A stretch of DNA of 32,000 nucleotides from positions 68,841 to 100,840 of the forward strand of contig CAZSBB010000001.1 of NCBI GenBank assembly GCA_964605235.1, in the 5' to 3' direction. This DNA comes from an uncultured Phycisphaeraceae bacterium (GTDB taxonomy: Bacteria > Planctomycetota > Phycisphaerae > Phycisphaerales > Phycisphaeraceae). Each line of letters begins with the position of its first letter. The first letter of the stretch is position 1. The notes under the pieces are model-generated. The model did no database searches, had not been told where the DNA came from, and saw only the letters and a program-made list of their open reading frames with translations. This document shows, piece after piece, positions 1,854-31,380 of this stretch. The position numbers and the translations under genes were made by a program.

Positions 1854-2003
1854 GGTCAGGTTATCGGCAGTCTGGCTGCGGGAAATGCAGCCAAATCCGC
1901 TGAACCACGCTCACCGCCAGCTTGACCAGACGTTTCATGGAATAAACTACGTCGTCGGGCGGTAGCTTTGCCGTCCCGCTGTTCAAGTTCGGAGCCCGCC
2001 TGC

Positions 2004-9011: not shown

Positions 9012-11114
9012 TCACTGCCACCAGACTGTCTCCCACGCCTCGGCTTCACGGTCGCTGATCCGCACGCGCTCGCCCTTGATCTGCAACCCGACGGGCGCGG
9101 GGGCAACCGCCAGCAGGTGCGGCCGCAGCACGGTCGCCAGACGCCAGCGCGAACCCGCCATCCGCAGCATCAGTTGGCCCATCGCATCGGGATACGGCTG
9201 GCCGGGCGCGACGGCGGCGGTGAACTCGCAGGGCGAATCCGTCGCGGCCACCAGTTGCAAGCCCACGCGCGACGACACCCGCCAGTGGGCGTGGAGCGCC
9301 TCCTGCACCCGGCCGCGCTGACGCTGGCGCCACTGGGCGTAGCCGATGCAGTCCGGCAGGGCGGGCAATCCCAGCGTGTTGGCTGCGTGCTCATCGCCGG
9401 CTGGCGTGTCAACGGTCAGCTTGCCATAGGCGTGAAACATCCAGCCGAAGCGCCGCGCGGTTGATGGCAGCGTCGCGCGACAATCATCGAGCACCAGCAG
9501 CAGGTCGCCGCGCAGGAGCAGGCGGCGGCGCAGCTCATACCCTTCGCCCACCAGCACGCCCTGCGCCCACGGCTCGTCGGCGTCCCCGCCCCAGGTCAGG
9601 TCGGCGCGGCCCATTTCGTTCTGCTCGTCGACGCAGAGCATGTTGTGCGCTGCACTGGTGCGGTAGTAACTCAACTCGGAGCCGCGTTGCCGCAGCGAAT
9701 AGCCCGGTTCGCCCAGGTCAGGCGCAATGAGTTCGCCCAGCGCGTGCAGCGTGAATTGCAGCCGATCGGGATGGTCGTGCCCGCTGATGGGCTTGCCGCA
9801 GCGAAAGGCGACTTGCAGCCGGCTGGGCGCGGAGCTGCGCAACACCCCGAGCTGCGCCACCGGCAGGAGCGTGGCACGGCGCGGCGGATCGGCGGGCGCG
9901 GGCAGTTCATCAGGACCAAACGCCAGTGCCGCCCAACCGGGACGCGCAGCCAGGCCGGCGGCGCGACGCTGGGCGGTCAGCGCGGCGACGACCGGCGCGA
10001 AGCGCGCCGCGTCCAGTTGCCCGGCGGCATACTCGTACAGGTGCGCGTAACGGGTCAGGTTCATATGCCGGGGATTGCCCAGGTCGCCCACCACGGTCAG
10101 CCGCCATTGGTCGTCGAGCAGTTGGAGCGGCGCAGCCGCCATGGCGCACAGCCGCTGCTGCAGCAGGTCATGGTCGGCCGCCGGACGGTGACGCTGGATT
10201 TCCCAAAGCCCCAGCAGCGGATACAGCGAGTAAAAGTGATAAAACAGCGTGCCTTCATACCAGAACCCGTCGCACCGCCCGGCGGCGTCGGCGGGCACGC
10301 CGGCGAGCAGTTGGCTGCGCAGGCCGGTCTGCTGCCCAAACGCCGGGGCGATCCAATCCTCGCGCTGGTAGAGGCGGCCGGCGGTCGCCAGCGCCAGGGA
10401 GACGAAGCACGACATGTTGTGGGTCGGTTGCCGACGCAGGAACTCGACCATGGTGGGCAGGCGATCCTCGAAGATGTCGCGGCGGATGGCGTCATGGTCG
10501 GCGGGGGTGAAGGCGGCGCTGCCGCGGGTCATTTCGTAGATCGCGCCGATTTGCGCCAGGATCGCAGCGTCGTACAGATTGCTGAAGTAGTGGGCGGGTC
10601 CGCCGGGGTCGGGGCGACGGGGCAACGGCAGGGCGAAATACGCCGCCGCCTGACGCAGACCTTGCGCGACCCATGCGGCATAACGCTCCTCACCCGTCAG
10701 TTGGTACAGCAATCCCACGCTGCGCAGCAGGCGGTAGGCGCGTTCATGGCTCAGCAGCACCCAGGCGCGCCGCTGGGCGTCGTCGCGTTCGCGCTGGTGC
10801 GTGCTGGGATCGAGGAAATCCTGCCCCCCCGCCGGCTCAAACACCAGATGCTCGCCGGTCTGCCGGGAGTAGAAATCGTGGCGCCAACCCGCCGGCTCCA
10901 TGACCAGCGTCGGAGGCGCCGCGAGCATGGCGTCCGCCTGCGCCCGCAACTGGTCCAGCAGCTCTCGTGCCCAGGCAAGTTGACCAACCTTGCGGCGAAT
11001 CTCCCCCACCACCGCCCCGGTGAAAAACAACCCGGGCCAGAAATCCTCCAGCAGCAAACCGGTGGTGGCGGGCGACAACAAATACGGCTCATGTCGAGCA
11101 AACGGGGCAGCCAT
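9012..11114 (-). CDS. heparinase II/III-like (alginate-lyase-superfamily) protein, no signal peptide
   Basis: 700 aa. The N-terminal half has (alpha/alpha)-toroid lyase-like motifs (WRHDFYSRQTGEHLVFEP, LLYQLTGEERYA). The C-terminal half has the heparinase II/III-type His cluster SGHDHPDRLQFTLHALGELIAPDLG and AAHNMLCVDEQNE. ATG 11114 lies 1 nt after the upstream stop, with GGAGG 8 nt upstream. Confidence 0.78.
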   Translation of the reverse strand: MAAPFARHEPYLLSPATTGLLLEDFWPGLFFTGAVVGEIRRKVGQLAWARELLDQLRAQADAMLAAPPTLVMEPAGWRHDFYSRQTGEHLVFEPAGGQDFLDPSTHQRERDDAQRRAWVLLSHERAYRLLRSVGLLYQLTGEERYAAWVAQGLRQAAAYFALPLPRRPDPGGPAHYFSNLYDAAILAQIGAIYEMTRGSAAFTPADHDAIRRDIFEDRLPTMVEFLRRQPTHNMSCFVSLALATAGRLYQREDWIAPAFGQQTGLRSQLLAGVPADAAGRCDGFWYEGTLFYHFYSLYPLLGLWEIQRHRPAADHDLLQQRLCAMAAAPLQLLDDQWRLTVVGDLGNPRHMNLTRYAHLYEYAAGQLDAARFAPVVAALTAQRRAAGLAARPGWAALAFGPDELPAPADPPRRATLLPVAQLGVLRSSAPSRLQVAFRCGKPISGHDHPDRLQFTLHALGELIAPDLGEPGYSLRQRGSELSYYRTSAAHNMLCVDEQNEMGRADLTWGGDADEPWAQGVLVGEGYELRRRLLLRGDLLLVLDDCRATLPSTARRFGWMFHAYGKLTVDTPAGDEHAANTLGLPALPDCIGYAQWRQRQRGRVQEALHAHWRVSSRVGLQLVAATDSPCEFTAAVAPGQPYPDAMGQLMLRMAGSRWRLATVLRPHLLAVAPAPVGLQIKGERVRISDREAEAWETVWWQ

Positions 11115-15674: not shown

Positions 15675-16412
15675 TCACGCCGGCAGCCGCGCCAGTGCTG
15701 TCTCCAGCGCCAGCGCCTGTGGGAAGAGAAGGTTGTTTTCCTTGTGGACATGCTGATGCAGGTCGGCTTCCAGACGCGCCAGACCATCGAGCATGGCGCG
15801 ATAGGTATTGCAGGCCCAGGCGGGCGGCGCGTACCCGTCCGTGGCGTCATGCATGGTTTCCAACGCCTGGCCGGCGTGATCATGCTCCAGTTCCATGCGG
15901 GCGATCGGATTGGCGATCGAGCCACAGTGATGATGAAGCGCGGCAACGGCGGGAGCTTCCAGGGCGCGGATCAGCGGGAACAGAATCTGCTCCTCTTTGA
16001 CCAGGTGCGACAGCAGCTCATCGCGCAACGCCACAAAGGCCTCGCGCAGCTCCGTCAGCCGCGGCTCCCGCGCCCCGTGCACCCGCGCCACCTTTTCCGT
16101 CATCACATCCAGCCGCGGCAATTCCTCGCGCAGATAGACATGGTGAGTCTGCTCAATGTGGTCCGCCAGGGCGCTTAAGCTCAACGCCCGCACATCGGGA
16201 ACGGCGGCGTCAGCGGCGGCGTCACGCGCATCCAGTTCCTGCAACTGGGTGATGATCTGCGCCGGTTCGACCTGCCGGCGGGCGCAGGCTTCCGCCAGCG
16301 ACAGTTTCCCGCCGCAGCAGTAATCAATGCGCCAGGCTTCGAACACCCGAGCGCGGTTGGGGGCGGCTTTGACCAGTTCGCCCACCGTGGATTCGATCAG
16401 GATCGTGGACAT
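15675..16412 (-). CDS. ric: iron-sulfur cluster repair di-iron protein (RIC/YtfE/ScdA family)
   Basis: N-terminal ScdA_N motif WRIDYCCGG. Hemerythrin-like His/Glu motifs (HHVYLREELP, EEQILFP, MELEHDHAG, HVHKENNLLFP). ATG 16412 is preceded by GAGGAG. The listed ORF has a 48-codon 5' extension. Confidence 0.9.
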   Translation of the reverse strand: MSTILIESTVGELVKAAPNRARVFEAWRIDYCCGGKLSLAEACARRQVEPAQIITQLQELDARDAAADAAVPDVRALSLSALADHIEQTHHVYLREELPRLDVMTEKVARVHGAREPRLTELREAFVALRDELLSHLVKEEQILFPLIRALEAPAVAALHHHCGSIANPIARMELEHDHAGQALETMHDATDGYAPPAWACNTYRAMLDGLARLEADLHQHVHKENNLLFPQALALETALARLPA

Positions 16413-16480
16413 ACAACAACTCCTCAGCAACAGGCGGGATGACGGGAAACCATGAGCCGCGTGCCCGGCTCGGACGACAT

Positions 16481-18862
16481 TCATGCAGACGTCGAGGAAA
16501 CGGGCTGGCTCGTGCGGGAGTACTCGGCGGGGGTCGCATCGGTGCAGAAACCCCAATGCAGGCCCGCGATGAAGTAGCCCAGCGCCATGATGCCCACGGC
16601 AAAGAGCGTGTCACCGATGACGCGCAGCCAGCGCAAGGTGTCCATGAGCTCGGTCTGCAGGAACGCCGCCGAGCGGGCGTACCACAGGCCGTGTTCGACG
16701 GACGCCACCGTCTGGAGCAGGCCCACCGGGAGAATGCTGATGAGGACCATCAGCGCCAGCCCGACGTTGATGCACCAGAAGGCGAATTTGAGCGACCCGG
16801 TTTTCCAGCCGGTGTGGCCGGTCAAGCCTTTGAGGCAGAAGAGCATCAACCCGATGCCGAGCATGCCGTAGACGCCGAACAGCGCGGTGTGCCCATGGAC
16901 GGGCGTGGTGTTCAGACCCTGCATGTAGTACAGGGCGATGGGCGGATTGATCAGGAAGCCGAACAAACCCGCGCCGACCAGATTCCAGAACGCCACCGCG
17001 ACGAAGAAATAGATCGGCCAGCGATAGGCCGCCACCCACGGCCGACTGCGGGTCAGGGACAGATTCTCATACGCTTCAAACCCGATCAGCACCAGCGGCA
17101 CCACTTCCAATGCACTGAAAGAAGCGCCCAGCGCCAGCACCGCGGTGGGCGTGCCGGTGAAGTAGAGATGATGGAACGTGCCGATGATGCCGCCAAACAG
17201 GAAGATGGTGCAACTGAACAGCACTGCCGAGGTCGCCATGGCGGTGCGCAGCAGTCCCATGCGGGTGAACAGGAAGGCAATGACCACCGTGGCGAAGACC
17301 TCAAAAAAGCCTTCCACCCACAGGTGCACCACCCACCAGCGCCAATACTCGATGATGGCATAGTGGCTGCGCTGGCCGTACATCAAACCCGCGCCGTAGA
17401 AGCCGGCGATCGCCAGGGAACTGATGAGAAACAACGCCAGCAGATGCTTGTGCTCGCCCGGCTGCCGAAAGGCCGGCCACATCGCCCGGCTCATCAAACC
17501 CAGCCATAAAAACAGCCCCACCAGCAGAAACCATTGCCAGAACCGCCCCAGGTCCACGTACTCCAGTCCCTGATGGCCAAACCAATAGCTGGTGGTTAAG
17601 TCCATCTGCTGCCGCGTGGAATACCAGGTTCCAAACAGGGTGCCCAGGACGATCACCAGCAACGCGACGAACAGGAAGTTGACCCCCGCGCGCTGGAACT
17701 TCGGCTCGTAGCCGGACACTGCCGGCGCCATGAACAGCCCGGTCGCCAACCACGCGGTGGCGATCCAGAAAATGCCCAGTTGCGTGTGCCAGGTGCGCGT
17801 GACCGAGTACGGCAAAATTTCCGCCAGCGGCAACCCATAAAACCCTTCGCCCTCCACGCCGTAGTGCGCGGTGACCGCCCCCAGGCCAACCTGCAGAACA
17901 ATCAGGGCTGCCACCACCCAGAAGTATTTGCGAGTGGCGCGCATGGATGGCGTCGGCTGCAGCGCCAGCAAAGGATCGTGCGCGGGCAGGTGGTCCTGCT
18001 CTTCGCCCGACTGCTTCAGCGTCGCGTGAAACCACGCCAGCGCGCCCACGCCCGCCAGCAGGAACACGAAGCTCAACACCGACCAGATGACGATCGAACC
18101 GCCGGGCCGATTGCCGATGAGCGGCTCCGAGGGCCAGTTGTTGGTGTAGGTCACGCGGGCATCCGCCAGCGCCGCATCCGTCGAAGCATTTGTAGCAACA
18201 ACGGGACGCTCGGTGCCGCACGCCCAGGCCGCCCAGAAAAAGAACGCGTTCATCGCCCGCTGCCGCTGTGGATCGCGCAGGGTGCGGGCGGGGATGGCGT
18301 AAGCGTCACGCAGCTCCGGCGGCGTCCTGCCCCCATCGGCGAGAAACAGCAAGTCGTCGTCAAACGTCTGTGCGTCGCCAAACAACGCCGCGTAATACCG
18401 CCCCAGCGCGTCAATGCCAGCCGCACGATCCGCGGACACCGTCAGGACGTCGGCCTGGGGGTCATACCGATTGGTGCGGTACTCCGCCCGCAAACGCGCC
18501 TCGACCTCCGCGCGGGCGACCGCATCCAAAGCCGCGAACGGCTGACCATAATCACGTTGCGACCAGCGCTCGGCGACGTACAGAATCTCCCGGTGCAGCC
18601 AGTCCGCTGACCAGTCGGGCGCCACGTAGGCCCCGTGTCCCCACACGCTGCCGACCTGTTGCCCACCGATGGATTGCCACACCGCCTGGCCGGTGAGCAT
18701 GTCCTCCCCGGTCATCAGCACCGTGCCGTCGGCCGCGCACACCTGTCCGGGATAGGGCGGCGCCTGCCGATATATCTCCGAGCCGTAGTACCCCAGCACC
18801 GCGAACGAACCCAGCACCACCACCGCGAATGCCACCCAGTGTTTCACGTAAGACCGCTTCAT
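16481..18862 (-). CDS. norB: quinol-dependent nitric oxide reductase, single large subunit (qNOR)
   Basis: 793 aa. About 280-aa N-terminal extension without CxxCH (GQAVWQSIGGQQVGSVWGHGAYVAPDWSADWLH), followed by a 12-TM haem-copper-oxidase core with conserved His (TPVHGHTALFGVYG, HHLYFTG, WVVHLWVEGFFE). AGGAG lies upstream of ATG 18862. Confidence 0.92.
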   Translation of the reverse strand: MKRSYVKHWVAFAVVVLGSFAVLGYYGSEIYRQAPPYPGQVCAADGTVLMTGEDMLTGQAVWQSIGGQQVGSVWGHGAYVAPDWSADWLHREILYVAERWSQRDYGQPFAALDAVARAEVEARLRAEYRTNRYDPQADVLTVSADRAAGIDALGRYYAALFGDAQTFDDDLLFLADGGRTPPELRDAYAIPARTLRDPQRQRAMNAFFFWAAWACGTERPVVATNASTDAALADARVTYTNNWPSEPLIGNRPGGSIVIWSVLSFVFLLAGVGALAWFHATLKQSGEEQDHLPAHDPLLALQPTPSMRATRKYFWVVAALIVLQVGLGAVTAHYGVEGEGFYGLPLAEILPYSVTRTWHTQLGIFWIATAWLATGLFMAPAVSGYEPKFQRAGVNFLFVALLVIVLGTLFGTWYSTRQQMDLTTSYWFGHQGLEYVDLGRFWQWFLLVGLFLWLGLMSRAMWPAFRQPGEHKHLLALFLISSLAIAGFYGAGLMYGQRSHYAIIEYWRWWVVHLWVEGFFEVFATVVIAFLFTRMGLLRTAMATSAVLFSCTIFLFGGIIGTFHHLYFTGTPTAVLALGASFSALEVVPLVLIGFEAYENLSLTRSRPWVAAYRWPIYFFVAVAFWNLVGAGLFGFLINPPIALYYMQGLNTTPVHGHTALFGVYGMLGIGLMLFCLKGLTGHTGWKTGSLKFAFWCINVGLALMVLISILPVGLLQTVASVEHGLWYARSAAFLQTELMDTLRWLRVIGDTLFAVGIMALGYFIAGLHWGFCTDATPAEYSRTSQPVSSTSA

Positions 18863-19532: not shown

Positions 19533-21185
19533 TCAGCGTTCGCGCAGCACCACATAGCAGACGAACTGCGGGGCGAAACTGCCCGCCAGCGGCAGCGTGA
19601 TCGGCTGTCCGGTCCACGGCGTTTCCAGCACCGGCGCGCCCCAGTAGTCTTCGACATTGATGAAGCGGAAACGCTCGCCGGGTTTCGCCTGCCACAACTG
19701 CGCCAGGTCGAGAGGAATCGTGGACGCACCCGGCCAGTTGTAAATAATCAGATGGGCGCGGTCGAGTTCATAGGGATTGGGGCGCAGGTACACCCACGCT
19801 TCCTGCGGCGCGGTGGAGACGAATTCGCTGTGCGCGCCCCAGCCGGTGGCCTGCTGCCAATCCGCCAGGCTGTCGAAAGATCTGCCATCGCGGTAGATGT
19901 GCCGGGACGACGGAGCTCCCTCGGCGAAGTAGGTATTGCGGTCCAGTTCACTGCGGCGGGGATCGTAGCGCAGGTTCGGCGCCGCCTGGGGTTCCTCCAG
20001 GAAGTCCATCACGGCATCCCCCTTCGGCGCGACATAAAACGGATCGTCGCCCTGGGGACTGGTCATCATCAACCCGTAGCCGGTGTGGGTGTAGCAGCGG
20101 TTGTCGGTGAAGGTCAGGCGATGCCAGTTTTTGATTTCCACCGCGTTGAGACCGCCGACGAAGACGCTGTGACGGATCGCCAGCGTGCCGTTGTTTTTGG
20201 CGATGTAGCCAAAGTCCGCGCCGCGCTTGAAGCGTCCCGCTGAGCCGCCGCCCTGGGCGATCGCCGCCGCGACGGCCTGCTGCACGTCACCGCCGCCGAC
20301 GATGTGCGCCTGCTGCGGGAAATAGGTGTAGCAGTGGTCCACCTGAATCTGATTGGCGTCCTTGTGCCCGCCGAGCAGGAAGTTGACCACCGGGAGGGCG
20401 CTGCCGACAGGCAGGCCATTGCCATAGAGCACGCAGCCTTCGAAGCGGAAGTTCGCCTGGGCTTTTTCCTCGGCGTAGCCGTGCATGCCCCAGCCGAAGT
20501 TGTTGAAGATCAGGCACTCGCGAAAGGTCTTGGTGGTGTGGGCTTTGGTGTTCTGGGTGTAGATGCCATGCGATTGGGCTCTGGTGTCCCGCCCATTGCG
20601 ATAGAGCAGGCAGCCGGTGATCTCGTGGTCGTTGCCGATATCCCAGGCGCCGATGCCCGAGCGGTCGGGATTGTCGTGGATGATCAGGTTGATGAGCTTG
20701 ACGCCATCGCCGCCCGCCAGCCAGACCGCCCCGCCGCGGCGTGGAGGCAGATCGCCGCCGACGGTGACTTCCACCCCCCAGAGCCAGGTGTGCGAACCCT
20801 GGAGGGTCAGCACATGCTGCACCTCCGCAGCCGCGGTGATGGTCGCCCGCACCCCGGGCAGCGCGCGGTAGATGATTGGCTGCTCCGCGGTGCCGTTGAG
20901 CGCGGCGTTCTGCTCGAAGGGGCCTTGATAAGTTCCTGCCAGCAGCCAGATGGTGTCGCCGGGCGCGATGCGCTGGGCGTCGGTCAGCGCGGTGGCCAGG
21001 TCCAGCGGCGCGGCGCGCGTGCCCGGCGCGTCCGGCAAACCCTCGGGGCTGACGTACAACTCACGCGCCGAGGCGATGCCCACCAACAGCAACACGCCCA
21101 ACCCCGTCAACGCCATTCGCATGTCCAGCATCCTTATACGATCCATGGTGAAAAACAGCGGTCGGGGCGAGCAGCGCTGGTTCAT
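19533..21185 (-). CDS. secreted right-handed parallel beta-helix repeat protein (pectate-lyase-fold)
   Basis: LYVSPEGLPDAPGTRAAPLDLATALTDAQRIAPGDTIWLLAGTY is a typical beta-helix N-cap. PbH1-like repeats follow (LINLIIHDN, ITGCLLYRNG, CLIFNNFGWGMHG, FEGCVLYGNG). ATG 21185 overlaps the upstream stop (ATGA). An alternative start at 21122 (MRMALTGLGVLLLVGIASA) gives a cleaner signal peptide. Confidence 0.75.
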   Translation of the reverse strand: MNQRCSPRPLFFTMDRIRMLDMRMALTGLGVLLLVGIASARELYVSPEGLPDAPGTRAAPLDLATALTDAQRIAPGDTIWLLAGTYQGPFEQNAALNGTAEQPIIYRALPGVRATITAAAEVQHVLTLQGSHTWLWGVEVTVGGDLPPRRGGAVWLAGGDGVKLINLIIHDNPDRSGIGAWDIGNDHEITGCLLYRNGRDTRAQSHGIYTQNTKAHTTKTFRECLIFNNFGWGMHGYAEEKAQANFRFEGCVLYGNGLPVGSALPVVNFLLGGHKDANQIQVDHCYTYFPQQAHIVGGGDVQQAVAAAIAQGGGSAGRFKRGADFGYIAKNNGTLAIRHSVFVGGLNAVEIKNWHRLTFTDNRCYTHTGYGLMMTSPQGDDPFYVAPKGDAVMDFLEEPQAAPNLRYDPRRSELDRNTYFAEGAPSSRHIYRDGRSFDSLADWQQATGWGAHSEFVSTAPQEAWVYLRPNPYELDRAHLIIYNWPGASTIPLDLAQLWQAKPGERFRFINVEDYWGAPVLETPWTGQPITLPLAGSFAPQFVCYVVLRER

Positions 21186-24100
21186 GGCTGCACGCGCAGG
21201 TAAAGCGGCCCGGCGGTCAGTTGCGCCGCCGTAAGCCGCAGCTTGCTCCAGCCAGCCTGCGCGGGCACATCCGCTTGCCGCCACTGACGCTGATCCGTCG
21301 AAAACCCCAGCGTCTGGGCTGGGAAGGCAAGCTCCACATCCACATCGCCGGTGATCTCGAAGACCTGCGGCGCCACGCGACGCACGCTGATGGCAGTGGT
21401 TTTGGTCACCGTGTCCCCCGGGCCATACCACCAGGCGTGCATGACGCCGGCGGGGCCGAAGTCCGCCAGTTCCGGCAGCTTTTCGTCCACCACCTGCCAG
21501 CGCCCCGGCCCACACCGATTGACGCGCCAGAACCGCGTGGCGTCATCGTCCGTCGCCACCCATGTGCGCGGCACGGCCGACTGTTGATCGAGCCAACTGC
21601 CCAGACTGCACTGAATCTCCCGGCTTTCCGCGGCAATCGCGTTGATCGGCGACCGATACAACTCCGCGGTCAGCCGGGTGACGATGCGCGTGCCCGCACC
21701 TGCCGTCAGGTCCGCAGCGATATCCAACGCGGGCACCGCCGACCAGGTTGCACCGCTGCCGACGACGAGATTCCCCCCGCGCGGATCGCTGGGCCAGCTT
21801 TGATCGAGCCACAGCGTGCGCTGACGGTAATCCACGCGCACGATGCGCCCTTCGCGCCGGGCGGCCTGCGTTTTGATCTGCACCAACGGGCTGGCGAGCA
21901 ATGTGCCGCCGGTGAGCGCCGCCTGCCGCAGCCCCTGCTTGTCCTGCGAGTGGAAAGCAAATTCACCGGCCACACGGTAACCGCTCTCTGCCAACTCGCG
22001 CGGCTTATCCGGGCGACCGTCGGCAAAACACACATCCTGCCGACCATCCGCCAGTTGCACCCCCACCGCCACCGCCCGCAGGTGATCGGTCTCATTGTCG
22101 TTGACCGCCAGCGCTTGCACGGACTGGATCAACGGCTCACCTACATAGGCTTCAATGATGGCGGGGAAGACGGATTGCACCTGGCGTTCGCTGCTGCTGC
22201 GCTGCTGGACGTAGATGTGCGTCATGCCATAGTCCATGCGCTTGGAGATCGCCCGCGCACGCAGCGCCTGCGCGCCATCGGCTTCCAGCAGATGCAGGCG
22301 CACGAACTTGCGCGGCGAGTCGGGGTCGAAGTTGATCCCCAGCAACCGATTCTCCGTGCCGTACGCCTGGGCATCGCGGCTGTAGCGCCAGGTGGCGGTG
22401 AGTTGCCCGGCGATCTGGCCGGCGAATTTCGACTCCGGCGCTCGGCCGAAGATGCTCAGGTAATGCTCGGGGGACGCGACGGACGCCGGCCCCATCGCGC
22501 CGGCGTCAAAGCCCTCGGGCGCAGCGCCAACGGCACGCTCCGCCGAGACATTCCAGGTGAAAGCATCATCCGCCATGGCGTGGAAACAGAAGGTGTTGAC
22601 CGTGCCGGCCGCGGTGCGGGCGCAATCGAACAGGTAGGAGCCGGGCGTGACGTTCGCGCGGGGCTCAAGCTGGGGCAACTTCGCCACGGGGTATTGCTGT
22701 GCGATGGTGAGCGGCTGCGACGGCTGGCTGTGGTCCACATCAATCAACGCAGCCTGGCGACTAAAGTGCTGGCTGGCGATTTCCGCGAGCCCCCGCGCTG
22801 CCACATAACGCGCCTGCGGCGCATCGGACAAGCTGGTGATCCAGGCGTGAAAACGCTGCGATCGGCCGTCCCATTCCACGACATTATGAACCCGGCGAAT
22901 GGTGTCGGAAGGAACGGTGTAACCCAGACGCTGCCCCCCGTCGATCAGCATGGGCAGGCCATGGGCGACAAACTGCAGGTCGAGTGAATCGTCATGGTGA
23001 TGGCCATAGCCCAAGCCGGTGCGCAGGTAAGCCGCCCGACGGAAACGTGGGTCGTCATGCTCGTGTCCGGTTTCCAGAATGCCCGCCCAATTGGGCAGCA
23101 CGCGCGAGGGTTGGTCGAGCCACGGCGCGCGGTGCAGTTGCGCCGCGGCGGTTTCAATCGCCTGCCACTGGGCGTCGGTTTCGTTCTGGCGGCCCAGGTA
23201 GTGCTTGAGGATGAAAGCGAACAGGGGGTCGCCACTCCATTCCCAGCCGTCGCGCATCATGTGACGCATCTGCAGGTGCATGAAGCCGGGCAGTTTGTCC
23301 GGGCCGGTGACATCGCCGACGCGCACAAAGTCCCAGCCGGCGACAATGGCGCGCACCATCCAGTAGCAATGCGCCAGCGGCTTGGGATAACGCTGGGGGT
23401 CCATCAGGCTGTAGCGCGGGTTCCCGCCGGCGGCGAGGTAGGCTTCAATCGGCGCGACGATGGTGCGGGCGCCTTCCATCGCGCTGTAGTGCGACGACGC
23501 GCCGTTGCCGTAAGCCGGCCCGTCGGGGTCGGTGCCGCTGATGAGCGCGTCCTGGATGCCCGCCAGCGCCATGGGATAGTAAAACGTGCGGGAAAAGGCC
23601 CATTCCATCCAGGGATCGGTGATGGCGTTGTCGCCCAGCACGGTGGCGACGGTGACGATGGATGCGGGATACACCACATCGCAGTAGTGCAGTATCCGCC
23701 GCGCGGTGTGCTGCACGCCAAAGACATCCATCAGCATGATCAGATCGGAAGGCTGCTTGACCCACGGCACAAATCGGCCGACGGACTGAGCGAGTTCCTG
23801 GTTGTCCTTGATGTAGTCGTAGATCATGTCGTACGACTGGGCGATCCACTGATAGCTGCCGTAGTGGCCAAGGGCATAGGCTTCCGCGGAGCGATAGTGG
23901 AAGCGATCGCGGCCGTACATGCCGGTGGCGTGCACCGCGAAGGCGTGGTAATTCGCCGAGTCCAGCGCGGGCAGGCTGTAGGCGTAACGGATCAGCGCCA
24001 GCACCTGATCGCGCAGGCGGTCCTCGCTCAAGTCCGCAGGCCATTGGGAATCCGGGCGCGGCGTGAGATTCTGCAGGTAAAACTGCCGGTAATACTGCAC

Positions 24101-25318
24101 CGCGTCGGCAATCGGACTCCAGTACCAGCACTTGTTCGGATCACGCGGATCCGGTGTGACGATGCCCTCGCCCACATCCTTGAAGGGATACGGGTCCGGC
24201 AGCGGCTTGCGGGCGCGGAAATCCGCCACGGTGTATTTGAGGTTCAGCTTCTTGTTGATGATGAAGGCATCGTGGTACTGCGGATCGCTGAACAGGTATG
24301 CGCCGCGTCCGTCATGGGCCGGCGTCCATGCGCCGAATTGCGCCTCGATCTGCTCGGCGGTCAGGTTGGGCATGCCCTTGGTCACTTCCCGCGGGAACAT
24401 GACCGTGGGTTGCGATTGCTTGAACTGGTAGCCGGCGCCCTGGTCGTTGAGCAGGGGGAACAGCTCCCACAACGCGCGATCGCGCGCCAGGCGCTGCTCA
24501 GGGGTGTAAATGCTGGGTTTGCGCTGCGTCGGCGGCGCGGGCAGGTCGAGCGTGCGCCGCGTCTTGATCGGCCGGCGCACTGCCCCCGCCAGCACGTCGT
24601 CCACGGTGATGTTGTGCAGCAGCAATGGCACTTCGCTGCCTTCATCCACAGCCAGCGTCACGTGGTATTCGCGCGCGGCGGGGGCGTGAAAATACAGCTC
24701 AGCGATGCAGTAGAACGTGTCGGTGTAGTTGGCGCGGAAGCGCGTGGTCGTCACTTCGCCCGCCAGGCCGTCGTTGACCGTCAGGCGCAGGAACAGCGGT
24801 TTGCGGATCGGCTGCAGGTGCTGCGCTTCGACTGCGCCGATCACGCGCACGACGTACATGCCCCACGGCAATTGGCCCAGATCCAGCGTGAAGACGGGGG
24901 CGTTGGCCGTGACGCGCAGCACCGTGGCCGGGGGTTCCTGTGCCTCCTGCCGGGTGGCGCCGGCGCGCACCACGGCATATACCGGGGCGACATAACTCTC
25001 CGGCTTGAGCTGCGGACTTCCCGGCGCGACTGGTATGTGGGGCGCCACAAAATTGCGGAGCTGCGTACCCCGATCGAACAGGCTGCGCGTGGGGGTGTAC
25101 TTCATCCAGTACGCGCGCCAGTGCTCGACGGAGCCGGGGTACAGTTCCCACTCGGGGTGGTAGCCTTCGTAGGCGTAGCCGGGGGGGATGCCGGGCGGGG
25201 CGGCGGCGACGGGCAGGTTGACGCCCGCCAGTGGTCCGCCGATGCCGTATTCCTGAGCGTGAGTCACTGCGGTGAGGAAGCAGACCCACAACCCGATGAT
25301 GCATAACTGCAAGCGCAT
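21182..25318 (-). CDS. very large secreted protein with central heparinase II/III-like region
   Basis: About 1378 aa from ATG 25318 (MRLQLCIIGLWVCFLTAVTHAQE signal); the listed start is TTG 25336. GYGHHHDDSLDLQF at 22970..23011 matches the His-cluster motif of heparinase II/III-like C-domains and parallels SGHDHPDRLQF in the 9012..11114 protein. The flanking roughly 270-aa N-terminal and roughly 600-aa C-terminal regions are unrecognised. Confidence 0.7.
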   Translation of the reverse strand: MRLQLCIIGLWVCFLTAVTHAQEYGIGGPLAGVNLPVAAAPPGIPPGYAYEGYHPEWELYPGSVEHWRAYWMKYTPTRSLFDRGTQLRNFVAPHIPVAPGSPQLKPESYVAPVYAVVRAGATRQEAQEPPATVLRVTANAPVFTLDLGQLPWGMYVVRVIGAVEAQHLQPIRKPLFLRLTVNDGLAGEVTTTRFRANYTDTFYCIAELYFHAPAAREYHVTLAVDEGSEVPLLLHNITVDDVLAGAVRRPIKTRRTLDLPAPPTQRKPSIYTPEQRLARDRALWELFPLLNDQGAGYQFKQSQPTVMFPREVTKGMPNLTAEQIEAQFGAWTPAHDGRGAYLFSDPQYHDAFIINKKLNLKYTVADFRARKPLPDPYPFKDVGEGIVTPDPRDPNKCWYWSPIADAVQYYRQFYLQNLTPRPDSQWPADLSEDRLRDQVLALIRYAYSLPALDSANYHAFAVHATGMYGRDRFHYRSAEAYALGHYGSYQWIAQSYDMIYDYIKDNQELAQSVGRFVPWVKQPSDLIMLMDVFGVQHTARRILHYCDVVYPASIVTVATVLGDNAITDPWMEWAFSRTFYYPMALAGIQDALISGTDPDGPAYGNGASSHYSAMEGARTIVAPIEAYLAAGGNPRYSLMDPQRYPKPLAHCYWMVRAIVAGWDFVRVGDVTGPDKLPGFMHLQMRHMMRDGWEWSGDPLFAFILKHYLGRQNETDAQWQAIETAAAQLHRAPWLDQPSRVLPNWAGILETGHEHDDPRFRRAAYLRTGLGYGHHHDDSLDLQFVAHGLPMLIDGGQRLGYTVPSDTIRRVHNVVEWDGRSQRFHAWITSLSDAPQARYVAARGLAEIASQHFSRQAALIDVDHSQPSQPLTIAQQYPVAKLPQLEPRANVTPGSYLFDCARTAAGTVNTFCFHAMADDAFTWNVSAERAVGAAPEGFDAGAMGPASVASPEHYLSIFGRAPESKFAGQIAGQLTATWRYSRDAQAYGTENRLLGINFDPDSPRKFVRLHLLEADGAQALRARAISKRMDYGMTHIYVQQRSSSERQVQSVFPAIIEAYVGEPLIQSVQALAVNDNETDHLRAVAVGVQLADGRQDVCFADGRPDKPRELAESGYRVAGEFAFHSQDKQGLRQAALTGGTLLASPLVQIKTQAARREGRIVRVDYRQRTLWLDQSWPSDPRGGNLVVGSGATWSAVPALDIAADLTAGAGTRIVTRLTAELYRSPINAIAAESREIQCSLGSWLDQQSAVPRTWVATDDDATRFWRVNRCGPGRWQVVDEKLPELADFGPAGVMHAWWYGPGDTVTKTTAISVRRVAPQVFEITGDVDVELAFPAQTLGFSTDQRQWRQADVPAQAGWSKLRLTAAQLTAGPLYLRVQP

Positions 25319-25342
25319 GAGATTGATCCGTGGCAATACCTG

Positions 25343-25393: not shown

Positions 25394-26200
25394 TCAGTAC
25401 GACGTGCCCGCGGCGTAGCTGAGTTCCCACCAGCGGGCGTTCCAGAAGCGGCTGGCGGTGTTGGCGTAGTAGGTGAAGCTGAGGGGGATCAGCGCACCGT
25501 GGCCGTCGAGGAAAACGAAATTGGTGGTTTCGCCGGGGTGGCGGGGATCGACTTCGTAGTTGGTGCTGTAGGGAAAGCGTTCGCCGATCAGGTAGGTGGA
25601 ATTGCTGACGCCCCCGGTGTCGCCGAGCATGACGGTCTGGCTGTGGGGCGAGCGGATGTCGTCGGGCCGAAAGCTGTACATGCGCTGTTTGGCGGCGATG
25701 CCCGCGCCGTCGCGCAGGGAATACAGCGTGCGGGCGGTGCCCCAGGCTTCCTTGTAGAACTGGTAGTTGACGCCGTAGCTCGTGTAGCGGTTGGTCGCCA
25801 GGTATTCGCCGCAGGCGTGCACTCCGGAGTGCCAGATGGTGCCGCTGGTGAAGGTCTTGCTCGGCGCCGGCAGGTAGTTCCGCCGCACCAGCGTATAGGG
25901 CCAGGGCACAGCTTCGCCCGCGGGCAGAGCGTAGGTCTGCACCACAGCTGCGGAGGCGTCGATCCGCGCGACCGGGTTTTCGGGATACAAGGGCGGAATC
26001 CGCTCGGTGAAGTCGCCGGCGTAGACATTCACCGCCTGCCCGTACTGCCGCAGGTTGCTGGCGCAGGCGATCATGCGCCCGGCGGCGCGGGCCTGCTGCA
26101 ACGCGGGCAACAGCATGGCGATCAGCAGCGTGATGATGGAGATCACCACCAACAGCTCGATGAGCGTGAACCCACGCCTCCGGGAATACCGGTCGTTCAT
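25394..26200 (-). CDS. DUF1559-type protein with prepilin-type N-terminal cleavage/methylation domain (pseudopilin-like)
   Basis: [38 protein letters not shown] is the class III signal G/FTLIE. A C-terminal [14 protein letters not shown] resembles the H-X9-DG motif. ATG 26200 is preceded by AGGAGA. The listed ORF has a 30-codon extension. Confidence 0.85.
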
Positions 26201-26274
26201 GGTGCTGTCTCCTGGGTCGGCACGGACGCCATGGGCATCATAAACCGCGGATGGTTCGGCTCCGTGACGAAGCA

Positions 26275-26309
26275 TTATCTTTAGTAGCAATGAACTTATC
26301 CTTTATGCG
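26275..26309 (-). promoter_or_regulatory. copy 1 of a 35-nt bipartite motif (TTATCTTTA-N18-TTTATGC on the plus strand)
   Basis: TTATCTTTAGTAGCAATGAACTTATCCTTTATGCG. Lies 75-109 nt upstream of the DUF1559 start. Matches 27556..27590 at 22/35, with an exact 9-mer and an exact 7-mer at identical spacing. Confidence 0.45.
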
Positions 26310-27592: not shown

Positions 27593-28495
27593 ATGGACAT
27601 ATCCATGAAATCGCCCCCTCTGGTGCTGGCGGACCTGCAGTTCAGCCGCTGTCAGTATCGCCTACGCCAGCCGGGCTGGACCTATCCGCCGGCGTACCAC
27701 CGCGACCTGTGGGAAATCTATGTGTGCTGGCAGGGACAATTCGAAGTCGGACAGCGCGGCCGGGCGACCGTCATCACCGCGCGCCAGGCGCTGGTCATTC
27801 CGCCGGGGCGCGCCCATGACGCGCGGGTGCTGGGCGAAGACCCCGCGCTGATCGGGATCATCCTGTTTCGCGCCCGCTGTCCGCGCCTGCGCCGTCGCGC
27901 CTTTGCCGCGCTGCCCCTGGCGGGACGCCGACTGGACCGGCTGCGGCAGTTCATGAACGAGCGCGGCCACGACGCCACCGCCGCCCAGCGACGTCTCGCC
28001 CTGCTGACCCTGTTTCTCCTCGATCTGGCGGAACCCGCCGCCCCGCCCACGACGCCGCACGCCCATCGGCTGCAGATGCTCGCGCCTTACGCTCAAGACC
28101 CGCTGGTGGAGCGCGTGCTCGAACATCTGCTGGAACGGCTGCCCGATGGCCTGGCGCTGGAGGAACTGGAAACCCGCACCGGTTACGGCGCCAGCCGGCT
28201 GCGCCAACTCTTCCGCCAGCGCACCGGCATGAGCCTGCGCGACGCCATGATGCAGTTGCGCCTGGAAGAAGCGCAGCGCCTGCTGCTGTTCTCGGGGCTG
28301 AAAATCGCCGCCGTCGCCCACATGGTCGGGTTCCGCCAGACCCCCAAATTCAACCAGTTCTTCCGCCGCTGCTGCGGTTGCTCGCCCACGCAGTTCCAGC
28401 GCTCGGGCGTGCGCTTTGGCGAAAAATGGGGCGAGGAAGCCGACCACAATGAAGTGCAGTTGCCCGCCGGCGCGTTACGTCGCCCGCGCCGCTGA
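27593..28495 (+). CDS. AraC family transcriptional regulator (cupin-like N-domain plus HTH_18)
   Basis: C-terminal dual HTH: LEELETRTGYGASRLRQLFRQRTGMSLRDAMMQLRLEEAQRLLLFSGLKIAAVAHMVGFRQTPKFNQFFRRCCGCSPTQFQ. The N-domain VIPPGRAHD is cupin-like. An alternative start is 27605. Confidence 0.88.
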   Translation: MDISMKSPPLVLADLQFSRCQYRLRQPGWTYPPAYHRDLWEIYVCWQGQFEVGQRGRATVITARQALVIPPGRAHDARVLGEDPALIGIILFRARCPRLRRRAFAALPLAGRRLDRLRQFMNERGHDATAAQRRLALLTLFLLDLAEPAAPPTTPHAHRLQMLAPYAQDPLVERVLEHLLERLPDGLALEELETRTGYGASRLRQLFRQRTGMSLRDAMMQLRLEEAQRLLLFSGLKIAAVAHMVGFRQTPKFNQFFRRCCGCSPTQFQRSGVRFGEKWGEEADHNEVQLPAGALRRPRR

Positions 28496-29590
28496 CGGCA
28501 GCCGTTCCTGACGCACCAGCACCACGCACCACGCCACCGCGGCGGCATTGAGCACCAGGAACAGCAGGAACCACACCAGCCCGCCGGCTTGCGCCAGCTT
28601 CGCATGCTGGTCGTACAACTGCGTGATGTCGATGGCGCTCAGGCGAATAGCTTCGCGCACCACCGTCATGCCCAGCGTGGTGACGACCCAGCCCAGCGTA
28701 ATCACCGCCATGCTGGGCCACGCGGTTGTCTGCGGCAAACCATTGGCGCGTTTGGCGCGGACAAGAACCAGCAACCAACCCACCGCCTGCACGCCCGCGC
28801 CCAGCAGCGCCGCGAGCAACCACGGCTGCGCCAGCGGACCGGCGATCGTTTCCTGCGTGGCCTCCGGCAGCATCTGGTGATGCCAGCAGGCGCACCCGCC
28901 CGCCAGCAGCAAGCCCACCAGCGCCAGCACCGCCAGCTCACGGGCGCATTGCCCGCTGCGGCGCAACTGCCAGCCGGCGATCAACGCCATCCCCGGCAAC
29001 GCGCCCAGCGCCCACATGCCCAGCCGCGGCCAGAGCAGCGCGTCGTGATACCACATCGAGCGCGAAGCATAAAAGCTGGGCCAGATCCCGCTGTTCAAGC
29101 TCAGCAGGTGGTTCTCCGTCCATGCCCAGGCGGTGTAACCAAAGCACAGGAAGGCGCCGAGCCCCACCAGCGGCGCCGCCCAGCGTAGCCCGGAACCGAC
29201 CTGCCGACTCTTGAGCACATACAGCAGATAGAAACCCACAATCAAAGCGGGCAGCAGCGCCATCCAGCGATGAAACAGGAGCAGATTGGCGCTGTAGAAA
29301 TTCAGCTTGTAGAGCAGTTGCACAAACAGCAACGGCGCCACGCCCGCGGTAATGGCGGCGCCCAGCGCGAAGGGCAACCAGTCACGCAGCAGGGCCGCCA
29401 GCGCGGTGGGCGGCTGAGCGCTGCGGCGTGCTGCCGACCAGGTCGCGCGCTGCAGCGCCCGGCCGGTCACGTAGACAATGCCCGCCAGCACATAGTTCAT
29501 CAGCAGCACATGGATCACCAGCGTCGCCACGTACAGCGTCAGGTACAGGGCGGTCGGCAGCGGAAAACCCAGGGGAAACAGCGTATTCAT
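28475..29590 (-). CDS. polytopic membrane protein (about 9-10 TM), unknown; start overlaps the stop of the bd-like gene
   Basis: 371 aa. Hydrophobic helices throughout (LYLTLYVATLVIHVLLMNYVLAGIVYV, LPALIVGFYLLYVL, and others). The ATGA overlap at 29587..29590 with the upstream gene suggests translational coupling. No motif recognised. Confidence 0.7.
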   Translation of the reverse strand: MNTLFPLGFPLPTALYLTLYVATLVIHVLLMNYVLAGIVYVTGRALQRATWSAARRSAQPPTALAALLRDWLPFALGAAITAGVAPLLFVQLLYKLNFYSANLLLFHRWMALLPALIVGFYLLYVLKSRQVGSGLRWAAPLVGLGAFLCFGYTAWAWTENHLLSLNSGIWPSFYASRSMWYHDALLWPRLGMWALGALPGMALIAGWQLRRSGQCARELAVLALVGLLLAGGCACWHHQMLPEATQETIAGPLAQPWLLAALLGAGVQAVGWLLVLVRAKRANGLPQTTAWPSMAVITLGWVVTTLGMTVVREAIRLSAIDITQLYDQHAKLAQAGGLVWFLLFLVLNAAAVAWCVVLVRQERLPSAARAT

Positions 29591-31074
29591 GGCGTCACCT
29601 CCTGCGGGCGGGAGATGGCTTGACTGATGCGCACCGGCGGCGGAGCACCCTCTGCCCCGCCAGGCGGCGGGGGCGACATCGGCAGCGTGCCGGCTTCATC
29701 GAGCCACTTCTGCAACTGGGCGCGCACCTGTGTGAAATCCGGCTGGGCGCTGCTGTCGGCCCAACTCGGTGGTCGGCCGGCGTCGATCCAGGTGATCCAT
29801 TGCACCACGGCTTCGAGTTCCTCGGGTGAGCCGGCGAACGGCGGCATGAACGGCTTGAGCCGTTGCAGCTTGGCGATGTTCTGCCGCTTCATGTCCAGGG
29901 TCCATGAGCCGGTCAGATGGGTCAGCCCGTTGACGCCTTCGGGGGTATGACAGATCAGACATTGCAGACGGAACACTTTGGCGCCGGTGCGCAGCTGCTC
30001 GGTGGGCAGCAGGTCGCCATCGCGCAGCGGATAGGGATCGTCGGTCACGCTGCCCTGGATCCGCAGCAGCGCCACCTGATCGGGACGGATGGCGTTGGAG
30101 TAAAGCTGATGGCGAATGGTGAAGGGCTTGCGGACGCCTTCGCGGACAAACTCGCCGCCGGCGGTCGCGCCGAAGCCCAGCGCCAGCAGCAGCGTGGCGG
30201 TGGCGCCGTTGATGTAGAGCTTTTGCCGCAGCAGGCCGATCACGGCGTAACCTCCGATCAACACGCTGCACCCGACGGCAAGGGTGAAGAACATGGTCAT
30301 CGCCACGCTGCCGCCGGTGAGCCATTGCTGACTGTCGCGCGGCAGCACGGAGAAGAACCAGCCGCCGAACAGCGGCATCAGCACCATCCCCGCGAGGAAG
30401 TGCGCGGCCCGATTGATCAGCCGGGTGCGGCTGGCGCGGTCGAGTCCGGGCATGGCGTTGATGACCACCATGGCCGCCAAGCCTGCGATGGTGAAGGCGG
30501 CAAAAGTGCGGAAAAACAGCGACGGCCAGAAGCTGGGATTGAAGAAGCCGTCCCACACGCTGCCGGTGTAGGTCCACTGGCCGGGGGTGAGCTGCCAGGA
30601 CAGGATGCCGTTGATCCAGAACAAGCTCATCCACGCGGCGAAGGCATAGAGCAGCAGCAGGCGCATGCGGGCACGATCGGTCAGTTGCGGGCCGCAGCGG
30701 TAGAAGGCGTAGCCGGCAACGATTTCCAGGCAGAAGAAGGTCCACTCGATCGCCCAGACCCAGTGGAACTGGTCGATCATGACGCCGATGGTCCGGGCGC
30801 TGATTTGGATGGTGGTGAACCACATGCCCACGCCGGTGAGCGCGCCGAGCACGAAGCTGATGAGCACGAGGACGCGGAAGAAGCCGTCAAGGAACTGCCG
30901 CGCCAGCGGTTCGCGCTGGGTCTGGGCGAGCCATTGGAAGTAGCACATGAGCCAGCCGCCGCCGATGGCGAACTGGGCGAGGAAGACGTGGAAAATCCCC
31001 AGCCCCCCGATGATCAATCCCTTCATCAGCGGGCCGAAGTCATTGCTGGGATAAAACGGAAAGCTGCTGGTCAT
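29587..31074 (-). CDS. cytochrome bd subunit-I-like membrane domain fused to a C-terminal mono-haem cytochrome c domain
   Basis: 495 aa. TM1 GIFHVFLAQFAIGGG (compare CydA YHFLFVPLT), GALTGVGMWF, and FFCLEIVAGYAFY with a conserved-looking Glu. C-terminal CLICH (CxxCH) at 29947..29961, with KPFMPPF as a likely distal Met. Confidence 0.72.
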   Translation of the reverse strand: MTSSFPFYPSNDFGPLMKGLIIGGLGIFHVFLAQFAIGGGWLMCYFQWLAQTQREPLARQFLDGFFRVLVLISFVLGALTGVGMWFTTIQISARTIGVMIDQFHWVWAIEWTFFCLEIVAGYAFYRCGPQLTDRARMRLLLLYAFAAWMSLFWINGILSWQLTPGQWTYTGSVWDGFFNPSFWPSLFFRTFAAFTIAGLAAMVVINAMPGLDRASRTRLINRAAHFLAGMVLMPLFGGWFFSVLPRDSQQWLTGGSVAMTMFFTLAVGCSVLIGGYAVIGLLRQKLYINGATATLLLALGFGATAGGEFVREGVRKPFTIRHQLYSNAIRPDQVALLRIQGSVTDDPYPLRDGDLLPTEQLRTGAKVFRLQCLICHTPEGVNGLTHLTGSWTLDMKRQNIAKLQRLKPFMPPFAGSPEELEAVVQWITWIDAGRPPSWADSSAQPDFTQVRAQLQKWLDEAGTLPMSPPPPGGAEGAPPPVRISQAISRPQEVTP

Positions 31075-31167
31075 GGCGTCGACTCACCAGACAGCGTGCG
31101 ACGGGAGACACGCGATCAAGCGGTAGCATAGTCAGTCTTGGGGCGTTATCCAGTTGCGTGAAGATGT

Positions 31168-31344
31168 TTTTGCCACGGATGAACGATGATGGATTTGGAG
31201 ATTTGCTGATTTCAGATTTGGTGATTTGCAGCAGGCGGCATCTGGATGAACGTGCCAGTGAATGAGACAGGCGTCGTCACTCGCACATCACCAAATCCCC
31301 AATCAACCCATCAACAAATTCATCATCGTTCATCCGTGGCAAAA
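31168..31344. repeat. 177-bp imperfect palindrome with perfect 24-bp termini, internal GATTTG tandem array and three GGATGAACG copies
   Basis: TTTTGCCACGGATGAACGATGATG (31168..31191) is the exact reverse complement of 31321..31344. In the same register, GATTTGGTGAT (31215..31225) pairs with ATCACCAAATC (31287..31297). Five tandem GATTTG units span 31192..31230. Confidence 0.75.
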
Positions 31345-31380
31345 TATCTGCTGCGTTTTCCGGCAATGGAGTGCTGAGAC

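Follow-up and report, generated by a model that had tools for sequence, protein, structure and literature searches.

The cytochrome bd superfamily was divided by Murali, Gennis and Hemp (bioRxiv 10.1101/2021.01.16.426971) into the qOR, OR-C and OR-N families. In their survey OR-C1a is a CydA homologue of about eight transmembrane (TM) helices that lacks a quinol site and continues at its C-terminus into a periplasmic extension carrying haem c, while OR-C1b is a duplicated CydA that adjoins OR-C1a, with cytochrome c as the likely electron donor. The OR-C1a reference of their Table S6 has H24, V77, W80, E105, E112, S145 and L153 and lacks H186 and M393, and their Table S7 holds many OR-C1a proteins with a single haem whose adjacent OR-C1b has zero CxxCH motifs and is called 'hypothetical protein'. 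The survey flags OR-C as present in Planctomycetota, its tables naming no planctomycete example, lists Sulfuricurvum kujiense DSM 16994 as an OR-C1a carrier, and records the family in strict anaerobes and microaerophiles as well (Desulfovibrio, Thermodesulfovibrio, Sulfurospirillum). We found no biochemical or structural work on any OR-C member in the literature searched. Here we describe a pair of genes, P1 and P2, in a stretch of 32,000 nucleotides (hereafter the window) from an uncultured Phycisphaeraceae bacterium of the Planctomycetota (GenBank assembly GCA_964605235.1, contig CAZSBB010000001.1, positions 68,841 to 100,840), which have the OR-C1a/OR-C1b architecture and are a new member of this biochemically uncharacterized kind. 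A preliminary description made from the sequence alone had referred to a survey of cytochrome c-fused bd-like clades lacking biochemical characterization; that survey exists and describes this architecture.

P1 (29587..31074 (-)) encodes a 495-residue CydA homologue of the OR-C1a type, made up of 8 TM helices, a linker, a cytochrome c domain and a proline-rich tail, and P2 (28475..29590 (-)) encodes its 371-residue partner of the OR-C1b type, a paralogue of P1 with 9 TM helices and no haem c motif. The listing of open reading frames (ORFs) and the sequence agree with the preliminary description on both genes, on the ATGA at 29587..29590 (-) in which the P1 stop and the P2 start overlap, and on the CLICH motif at 29947..29961. 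This overlap suggests translational coupling, and the P1-type and P2-type genes of a divergent locus (L085) overlap by 4 nucleotides too. Searches at E<=1e-3 recovered 1833 homologues of P1 and 1016 of P2, and hence both are real conserved genes. Also as described earlier, no cydB, cydX or cydDC lies nearby: in a tblastn search of the window with 9 CydB queries, 2 CydX queries and E. coli CydC and CydD the best E-value was only 0.17. The P1-P2 pair is a self-contained two-gene module.

The affinities of P1 emerge from profile comparisons. Using hhalign, the P1 family matched a profile of 9 CydA sequences with a probability of 97.6% (E 4.1e-12), residues 16-231 of P1 falling on CydA 6-232 (TM1-5), and a second alignment placed residues 292-326 on CydA 425-459 in TM8 (E 1.4e-4, probability 52.6%). 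The match was reproduced with a 47-member P1 family alignment against the single E. coli CydA sequence (E 6.9e-6); with only 25 close P1 sequences the alignments to single E. coli CydA or CydB were insignificant. Further, tblastn searches with CydA from Halobacterium, Ralstonia and Halobaculum found the P1 gene as the sole match in the window, with E-values from 4.5e-6 (Halobacterium) to 1.8e-4. The AlphaFold2 (AF2) model of P1 (predicted local distance difference test score (pLDDT) 80.5, predicted template modelling score (pTM) 0.76) retrieved CydA chains from the PDB at ranks 1-10 of a Foldseek search (probability 1.00, E 3.4e-7 to 3.8e-5, TM-score up to 0.67), with the CydA chains of all solved bd oxidases on top, followed by CydB chains; no OR-C structure was among the PDB matches up to April 2026 in this search with P1. 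On the strength of profile comparison, fold and the link through its orthologues, P1 is a true CydA homologue. Its nearest homologues, at 64-70% identity, are for the most part proteins of metagenome-assembled genomes (MAGs) of Planctomycetota, and the public annotation of the family (P0003-P0120) is inconsistent, alternating between 'c-type cytochrome', 'cytochrome bd subunit I' and 'hypothetical protein'.

The membrane domain of P1 (residues 1-318, 30121..31074 (-)) contains TM1-8 with the N-terminus outside, as judged from the AF2 model, whose helices span residues 15-51, 58-91, 93-130, 133-162, 182-207, 213-242, 257-283 and 290-313, and from the count of lysines and arginines. The predicted cytoplasmic loops hold 9 of these residues and the periplasmic loops 2, which implies an N-out topology; with 8 TM helices the cytochrome c domain is therefore periplasmic, as had been supposed. 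The earlier judgement that P1 is too short for nine helices and a Q-loop was equally sound, as there are 8 helices and the loop between TM6 and TM7 is only about 13 residues long, so that the Q-loop is absent. We then compared P1 residue by residue with CydA in the hhalign alignments, counting conservation over 47 diverse family members (23-62% identity): 1) H29 in TM1 (30988..30990 (-)) lies on the column of CydA H19, the axial ligand of an active-site haem, and is His in 46 of the 47. 2) E110 and E117 in TM3 (30724..30747 (-)) lie on the columns of the proton-pathway residues E99 and E107 and are Glu in 44/47 and 45/47, respectively; their spacing is one residue tighter than that of E. coli E99/E107, a shortening reported for OR-C and qOR3 (bioRxiv 10.1101/2021.01.16.426971). 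3) S150 lies on the column of S140, likewise in the proton pathway, and is conserved across the family. 4) R189 (30508..30510 (-)) occupies the column of H186, the His ligand of haem b558 (FFR189T on FVH186T), and is Arg in 46 members. 5) In TM8 the secondary alignment puts the motif E308-F-V-R-E312-G-V-R315-K-P317 (30124..30153 (-)) on CydA such that E308 corresponds to W441, E312 to E445 (the second active-site haem ligand), R315 to R448 and P317 to P450; E308, R311, E312 and R315 are conserved in 45-46 of the 47 members and P317 in all. We hold the equivalence of E312/R315/P317 with E445/R448/P450 with moderate confidence, as a reading of aligned sequences. The CydA-like motifs that had been picked by eye thus fall where they were expected, GIFH29VF on MYH19FL, GALTGVGMWF on GVATGLTMEF and FFCLE117 on AFFLE107, and the two residues singled out as possible ligand-column matches, H29 and E117, align with H19 and E107.

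The set of near-invariant P1 residues in the 47 members is H29, W85, E110, E117, R189, E308, R311, E312, R315, P317, C372, C375, H376 and M410. The b558 ligands H186 and M393 and the Q-loop have no counterparts in P1, and among the 47 members no Met or His common to the whole family is conserved that could serve b558. Hence, with Arg in the H186 column, a TM6-7 loop of some 13 residues and no family-wide Met or His, P1 is not a canonical quinol oxidase. It is TM1-8 of CydA with the residues of the O2 site and the proton path kept, the quinol/b558 module deleted and a haem c domain in the place of TM9.

That C-terminal domain (residues ~357-431, 29782..30006 (-)) matches PF13442 over residues 360-427 (E 6.7e-9) and carries the only CxxCH of P1, C372-L-I-C375-H376 (29947..29961 (-)). 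A profile alignment sets KPFM410PPFAG on the Met-containing stretch GKNAMPAFAG of cytochrome c6 (M410 codon, 29845..29847 (-), in KPFM410PPF), and C372, C375, H376 and M410 are invariant in all 47 members. Pfam match, alignment and topology together indicate that the C-terminus is a periplasmic mono-haem class I cytochrome c with M410 as the predicted distal ligand, and so uphold the class I module with a Met ligand that the preliminary description had proposed. The Pro/Gly-rich tail beyond it (residues ~462-495, 29590..29691 (-)) is poorly conserved: model pLDDT falls below 50 over residues 470-495, and orthologue matches mostly stop near residue 462-482.

P2 had been set down as an unknown membrane protein that does not resemble CydB. 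The second half of this statement stands, as far as sequence goes, and the first does not, since P2 is a paralogue of P1 with the fold of a bd-oxidase subunit. Its AF2 model (pLDDT 88, pTM 0.87) has nine TM helices, and the eleven best Foldseek matches in the PDB are all bd-oxidase subunits, both CydA and CydB (probability ~1.0, TM-score up to 0.67). An alignment of 97 partner sequences, on which all P2 conservation counts are based, matched the P1 membrane domain in hhalign with a probability of 95.2% (E 2.5e-8) across 270 columns covering TM1-8. P2 has no match to the CydB family PF02322 and none to any other Pfam or NCBIfam model; in a control comparison canonical CydA and CydB likewise failed to detect each other (E 0.084). 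We filed P2 as a CydA-type paralogue and not as CydB because it shows paralogy to P1 and no CydB match, the CydA-CydB control being blank too. P2 is best described as a CydA-derived 'b' paralogue, with a bd-subunit fold, in the role of subunit II.

The P2-P1 alignment pairs P2 H27 (29510..29512 (-)), His in 97/97 sequences, with P1 H29 and hence with CydA H19, and the P2 TM8 motif R312-E313-A-I-R316 (28643..28657 (-)) with P1 R311-E312-G-V-R315; R312, E313 and R316 are kept in 95-97 of the 97 sequences, and the same TM8 register recurs in the non-significant alignment of P2 with CydA. At both columns of the proton-pathway glutamates P2 has Leu, and no CxxCH motif is present in P2. H27, R189, W193, E313 and R316 of P2 are essentially invariant, and H161 and H329, on the periplasmic side, nearly so.

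We scanned one genome per species, which gave 455 genomes with a P1 relative, and analyzed the loci of the best 80 of the 455. These 80 are mostly from Planctomycetota, with a few from other phyla, and include Zavarzinella formosa DSM 19928 and Maioricimonas sp. JC845. There were 77 loci with enough sequence downstream to hold a partner, and in 76 of them a P2 homologue lies directly after the P1 homologue on the same strand, so the conserved two-gene synteny that the preliminary description had left as a question is borne out. Only L025 (JBGTDB010000547.1) lacks a partner gene although over 3 kb of sequence follows its P1 homologue. A partner-like fragment of 21.8 bits, in another frame inside the P1 region, is all that occurs there; this may reflect loss, rearrangement or a MAG assembly artefact. 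Even two P1 relatives at 33-37% identity are followed immediately by a P2-family gene (112-138 bits) without CxxCH. No third conserved gene, be it a donor cytochrome, an assembly factor or another, recurred in more than 11 of the 80 flanks, in a search that covered ORFs of at least 50 residues and so left a CydX-like peptide of fewer than 50 outside its range. An exhaustive profile search recovered 1049 clusters at 50% identity, 257 of them at E<=1e-30, including 800-900-residue forms with extra multi-haem modules. The family member P0374 (E 5.8e-49) shares a cluster with a Sulfuricurvum kujiense DSM 16994 protein, which ties the family to the published survey at the level of the strain, not of the locus tag. 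Upstream of one 886-residue multi-haem relative (P0283), at L084:1-294, we observed a 97-residue C-terminal gene fragment that overlaps P0283 by 4 nucleotides and contains LVRDAVRG followed by a TM helix, like the VVREAIRL motif and TM9 of the partner; the fragment is not significant against the partner profile, and it suggests that gene order is reversed in this lineage.

Comparison with the OR-C1a reference showed that with a constant offset of +5 all the signature residues are present and conserved in P1, as H29, V82, W85, E110, E117, S150 and L158, the correspondence being taken from offsets and family columns and not from a direct alignment with the reference. In architecture, too, P1 conforms to OR-C1a, with its 8 TM helices, its lack of a quinol site and its C-terminal periplasmic CxxCH extension, and the adjacent paralogue P2 lacks equivalents of E99 and E107. 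The features in common thus comprise 1) a CydA-like subunit of 8 TM helices with a haem c extension, the H19, E99 and E107 positions and the shorter Glu spacing, and 2) an adjacent 'b' paralogue that has no such glutamates, is often free of haem c and is annotated as hypothetical. There are also differences. At three positions that are Tyr, Tyr and His in the OR-C1a reference and in most of the family, the planctomycete clade of the window has F124, R126 and R136, and its H104 and M259 are invariant and specific to the clade. The TM8 motif of the E445/R448/P450 type is nearly invariant in P1 and P2, whereas the OR-C1a survey table marks E445 as absent. At the H186 column the alignment gives R189, while the +5 offset applied to F183 of the survey table would give F188. 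What is slightly new here is the bd fold of P2 and its full-length paralogy with P1, the TM8 motif in both subunits, the Arg at the H186 column and the clade-specific residues.

The canonical CydAB oxidases (E. coli bd-I, 6RKO/6RX4; G. thermodenitrificans, 5DOQ; M. tuberculosis, 7NKZ) share the subunit fold of P1 and P2; they share with P1 the TM1 His, the TM3 Glu pair, the Ser and the Glu/Arg/Pro of TM8, and both systems are gene pairs for two pseudo-symmetric subunits. In contrast to CydA, P1 has no Q-loop, no H186/M393 b558 site and no TM9 and is fused to a cytochrome c domain; in place of CydB there is a CydA-type paralogue, no cydX or cydDC lies near the pair, and the donor is presumably cytochrome c rather than quinol. 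A closer parallel for the partner is CydAA' (qOR4a/qOR4b) of Caldivirga maquilingensis, in which subunit II is likewise a duplicated CydA that keeps the H19 equivalent and has lost the proton-channel Glu, although CydAA' is an archaeal quinol oxidase with a b558 site and no haem c. The cbb3-type haem-copper oxidases offer a likeness to what is proposed for P1, with an O2-reducing membrane subunit that is supplied by a class I cytochrome c (PF13442 type, CcoP-like), either fused or bound to it. The overall reaction proposed for P1-P2 is the same, but the catalytic subunits, haem-copper in one case and of the copper-free bd fold in the other, are unrelated and the likeness is functional only.

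Taken together, we consider it probable, if by no means certain, that P1 and P2 are the two subunits of a bd-superfamily member of the OR-C1 type, predicted to act as a copper-free cytochrome c:O2 oxidoreductase. P1 and P2 would pair as a pseudo-symmetric heterodimer, on the pattern of CydA-CydB or CydA-CydA', and a soluble periplasmic cytochrome c would hand electrons to the fused haem c, in replacement of quinol and b558; a cytochrome c donor was likewise inferred for OR-C1 by Murali et al. (bioRxiv 10.1101/2021.01.16.426971). From there electrons would reach two haems liganded by H29 and E312, the site at which O2 would be reduced to water, with protons drawn from the cytoplasm via E117, E110 and S150. 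Drawing these protons from the cytoplasm would in turn generate a membrane potential by charge separation.

Several observations weigh against this picture or parts of it: 1) Pfam finds only the cytochrome c domain in P1 and nothing in P2, and NCBIfam nothing in either; P1 has no match to PF01654 even at E<=1. Of the Pfam families considered in the preliminary description, then, cytochrome c is matched and PF01654 and PF02322 are not. Five P1 orthologues (~65% identity) do however pass PF01654 at 42-56 bits against a cut-off of 26.2 bits, over profile positions 11-226 of 418, as do 5 of 10 more divergent relatives. The PF01654 match comes and goes among proteins about 65% identical to P1, and given the scores of these orthologues we regard its absence in P1 as a threshold effect. 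2) HMMER profiles of the close P1 family, full-length or of the membrane domain only, reached cytochrome c proteins or nothing in the PDB, and not CydA; HMMER is evidently too weak in that direction. 3) The Foldseek E-values of P2 are modest (0.011-0.2), and P2 gave no significant direct hhalign signal to CydA or CydB, the 9-sequence CydB profile scoring E 0.05. 4) On the column of the channel residue H126 the window clade has replaced His by R136. 5) The pairing of E312 with E445 rests on the TM8 alignment with its probability of only 52.6%, and the survey has no E445 in OR-C1a. 6) As no experiment on an OR-C enzyme is on record, its haems, the binding of its partner, its electron donor and its substrate are all predictions. 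7) Since the family occurs in strict anaerobes such as Desulfovibrio, respiration need not be the role of OR-C.

The first of these points, together with public annotations that mostly read 'c-type cytochrome' or 'hypothetical protein', could be taken to mean that the likeness to CydA is superficial or that the genes are decaying, P1 being no more than a cytochrome c with a membrane anchor and P2 a membrane protein of other descent. We give this hardly any credence, in view of the homology to CydA at the levels of profile, fold and residue, of hundreds of orthologues at 64-70% identity with invariant functional residues, and of the near-universal P1-P2 synteny. A chance resemblance to CydA, or gene remnants, are effectively refuted by the synteny, the fold of P1 and the P2-P1 and P1-CydA profile alignments.

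The occurrence of relatives in strict anaerobes and microaerophiles, commonly in Desulfovibrio, Thermodesulfovibrio and Sulfurospirillum, bears on a different alternative, namely that P1-P2 does take electrons via haem c but is a detoxifying reductase of O2, H2O2, NO or a similar compound, serving protection and not energy conservation. Canonical bd oxidases have peroxidase-like and NO-tolerance roles too, which would fit such a function, as would the presence in the window, about 10 kb off, of genes for a quinol-type nitric oxide reductase (qNOR) and a RIC/YtfE repair protein. We nevertheless think a detoxifying role unlikely: E110, E117 and S150 are strongly conserved, as expected of an O2 reductase that consumes protons and separates charge, unrelated genes lie between the qNOR locus and the pair, and no neighbour recurs across loci.

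More improbable still is the idea that P1-P2 has no O2 site and is purely an electron-transfer module, acting as a quinol:cytochrome c oxidoreductase or as a haem wire through the membrane. Both subunits would then carry b-type haems that connect the pool in the membrane with cytochromes of the periplasm. Such a module could be read from the loss of b558 and the quinol site in P1 while the ligand positions (His and Glu/Arg) persist in P2 along with H161 and H329, positions that hint at more haems than catalysis requires, and from weak Foldseek matches of P1 and P2 to NrfD/PsrC-type and ACIII subunits that rank beneath the bd matches. These matches have E-values of 0.065 or worse, whereas the significant fold and profile matches are all to bd oxidases; residues of the Q-loop or quinol site are missing, and the conserved TM3 Glu pair is what distinguishes the O2 site of bd enzymes (bioRxiv 10.1101/2021.01.16.426971). 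Under the preferred cytochrome c:O2 oxidoreductase, the residues of P2 would still permit haem binding in the partner, as H27 (CydA H19) and E313/R316 (E445/R448) are kept and H161 and H329 are near-invariant. Whether P2 has a haem pair of its own in 'subunit II', bringing the complex to as many as five haems including haem c, strikes us as doubtful, if somewhat less so than the two functional alternatives above. We know of no solved bd oxidase in which subunit II is not haem-free. A haem-bearing P2 would make this a structurally new bd enzyme, in which the added haems would serve as another catalytic site, as a storage site or as a wire running from one subunit to the other.

Upstream of P1, the intergenic region shared with a divergent MFS transporter gene (31075..31378), as delimited by the sequence and the gene calls on the contig, is the presumed promoter region. 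A promoter scan found no sigma-70-like site in it; terminator-like matches were all within coding regions and at chance frequency, and an Rfam scan of window positions 28000-32000 gave nothing meaningful. Much of this region is occupied by an inverted repeat (31168-31229 and 31283-31344) with 62-nucleotide arms that are 84% complementary, 53 nucleotides apart and hold perfect 20-nucleotide cores (GCCACGGATGAACGATGATG). As RNA it is predicted to form a hairpin of -96.5 kcal/mol (z = -10.7); it occurs once in the window, has no Rfam match and may represent either a palindrome with a regulatory role or the insertion of a small element. On the other side of the pair a cupin/AraC-family regulator gene (27593..28495 (+)) is convergent with it, sharing 21 nucleotides with the 3' end of P2; this neighbour is not kept in other genomes.

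Elsewhere in the window, the qNOR (16481..18862 (-)) is a single-subunit enzyme of 793 residues with COX1 and NorB cytochrome c-like domains, and is adjoined by the gene for the RIC/YtfE-type di-iron repair protein (ScdA_N plus hemerythrin; 15675..16556 (-)). The two have the look of a gene pair for nitrosative stress, at a distance of about 10 kb from P1 and P2. The gene for a 1384-residue protein without Pfam match (21182..25336 (-)) has as neighbours those for a beta-helix protein and for a protein with a prepilin-type N-methyl domain (cluster coordinates 21182..25336 (-), 25394..26290 (-) and 19533..21515 (-)), and a heparinase II/III-like protein is encoded at 9012..11114 (-); the cluster resembles a locus for polysaccharide degradation or for secreted proteins in the planctomycete style. 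Finally, a radical S-adenosylmethionine (SAM) protein with a C-terminal DUF3641 domain (1968..3047 (+)) and a SAM-dependent methyltransferase (5033..5821 (-)) are encoded about 2 kb apart and are unrelated to the pair.

For the window itself the result is mainly a correct classification and not a discovery. Given the inconsistent annotation of the P1 family, metabolic reconstructions probably miss a terminal oxidase in these bacteria. The P1 clade is widespread in Planctomycetota, and its at least two cultured carriers, Zavarzinella formosa DSM 19928 and Maioricimonas sp. JC845, provide tractable organisms. To our knowledge the cytochrome c oxidase reaction has so far been attributed only to haem-copper oxidases; if OR-C enzymes do oxidize cytochrome c and reduce O2, they would represent a second, copper-free solution to this reaction.

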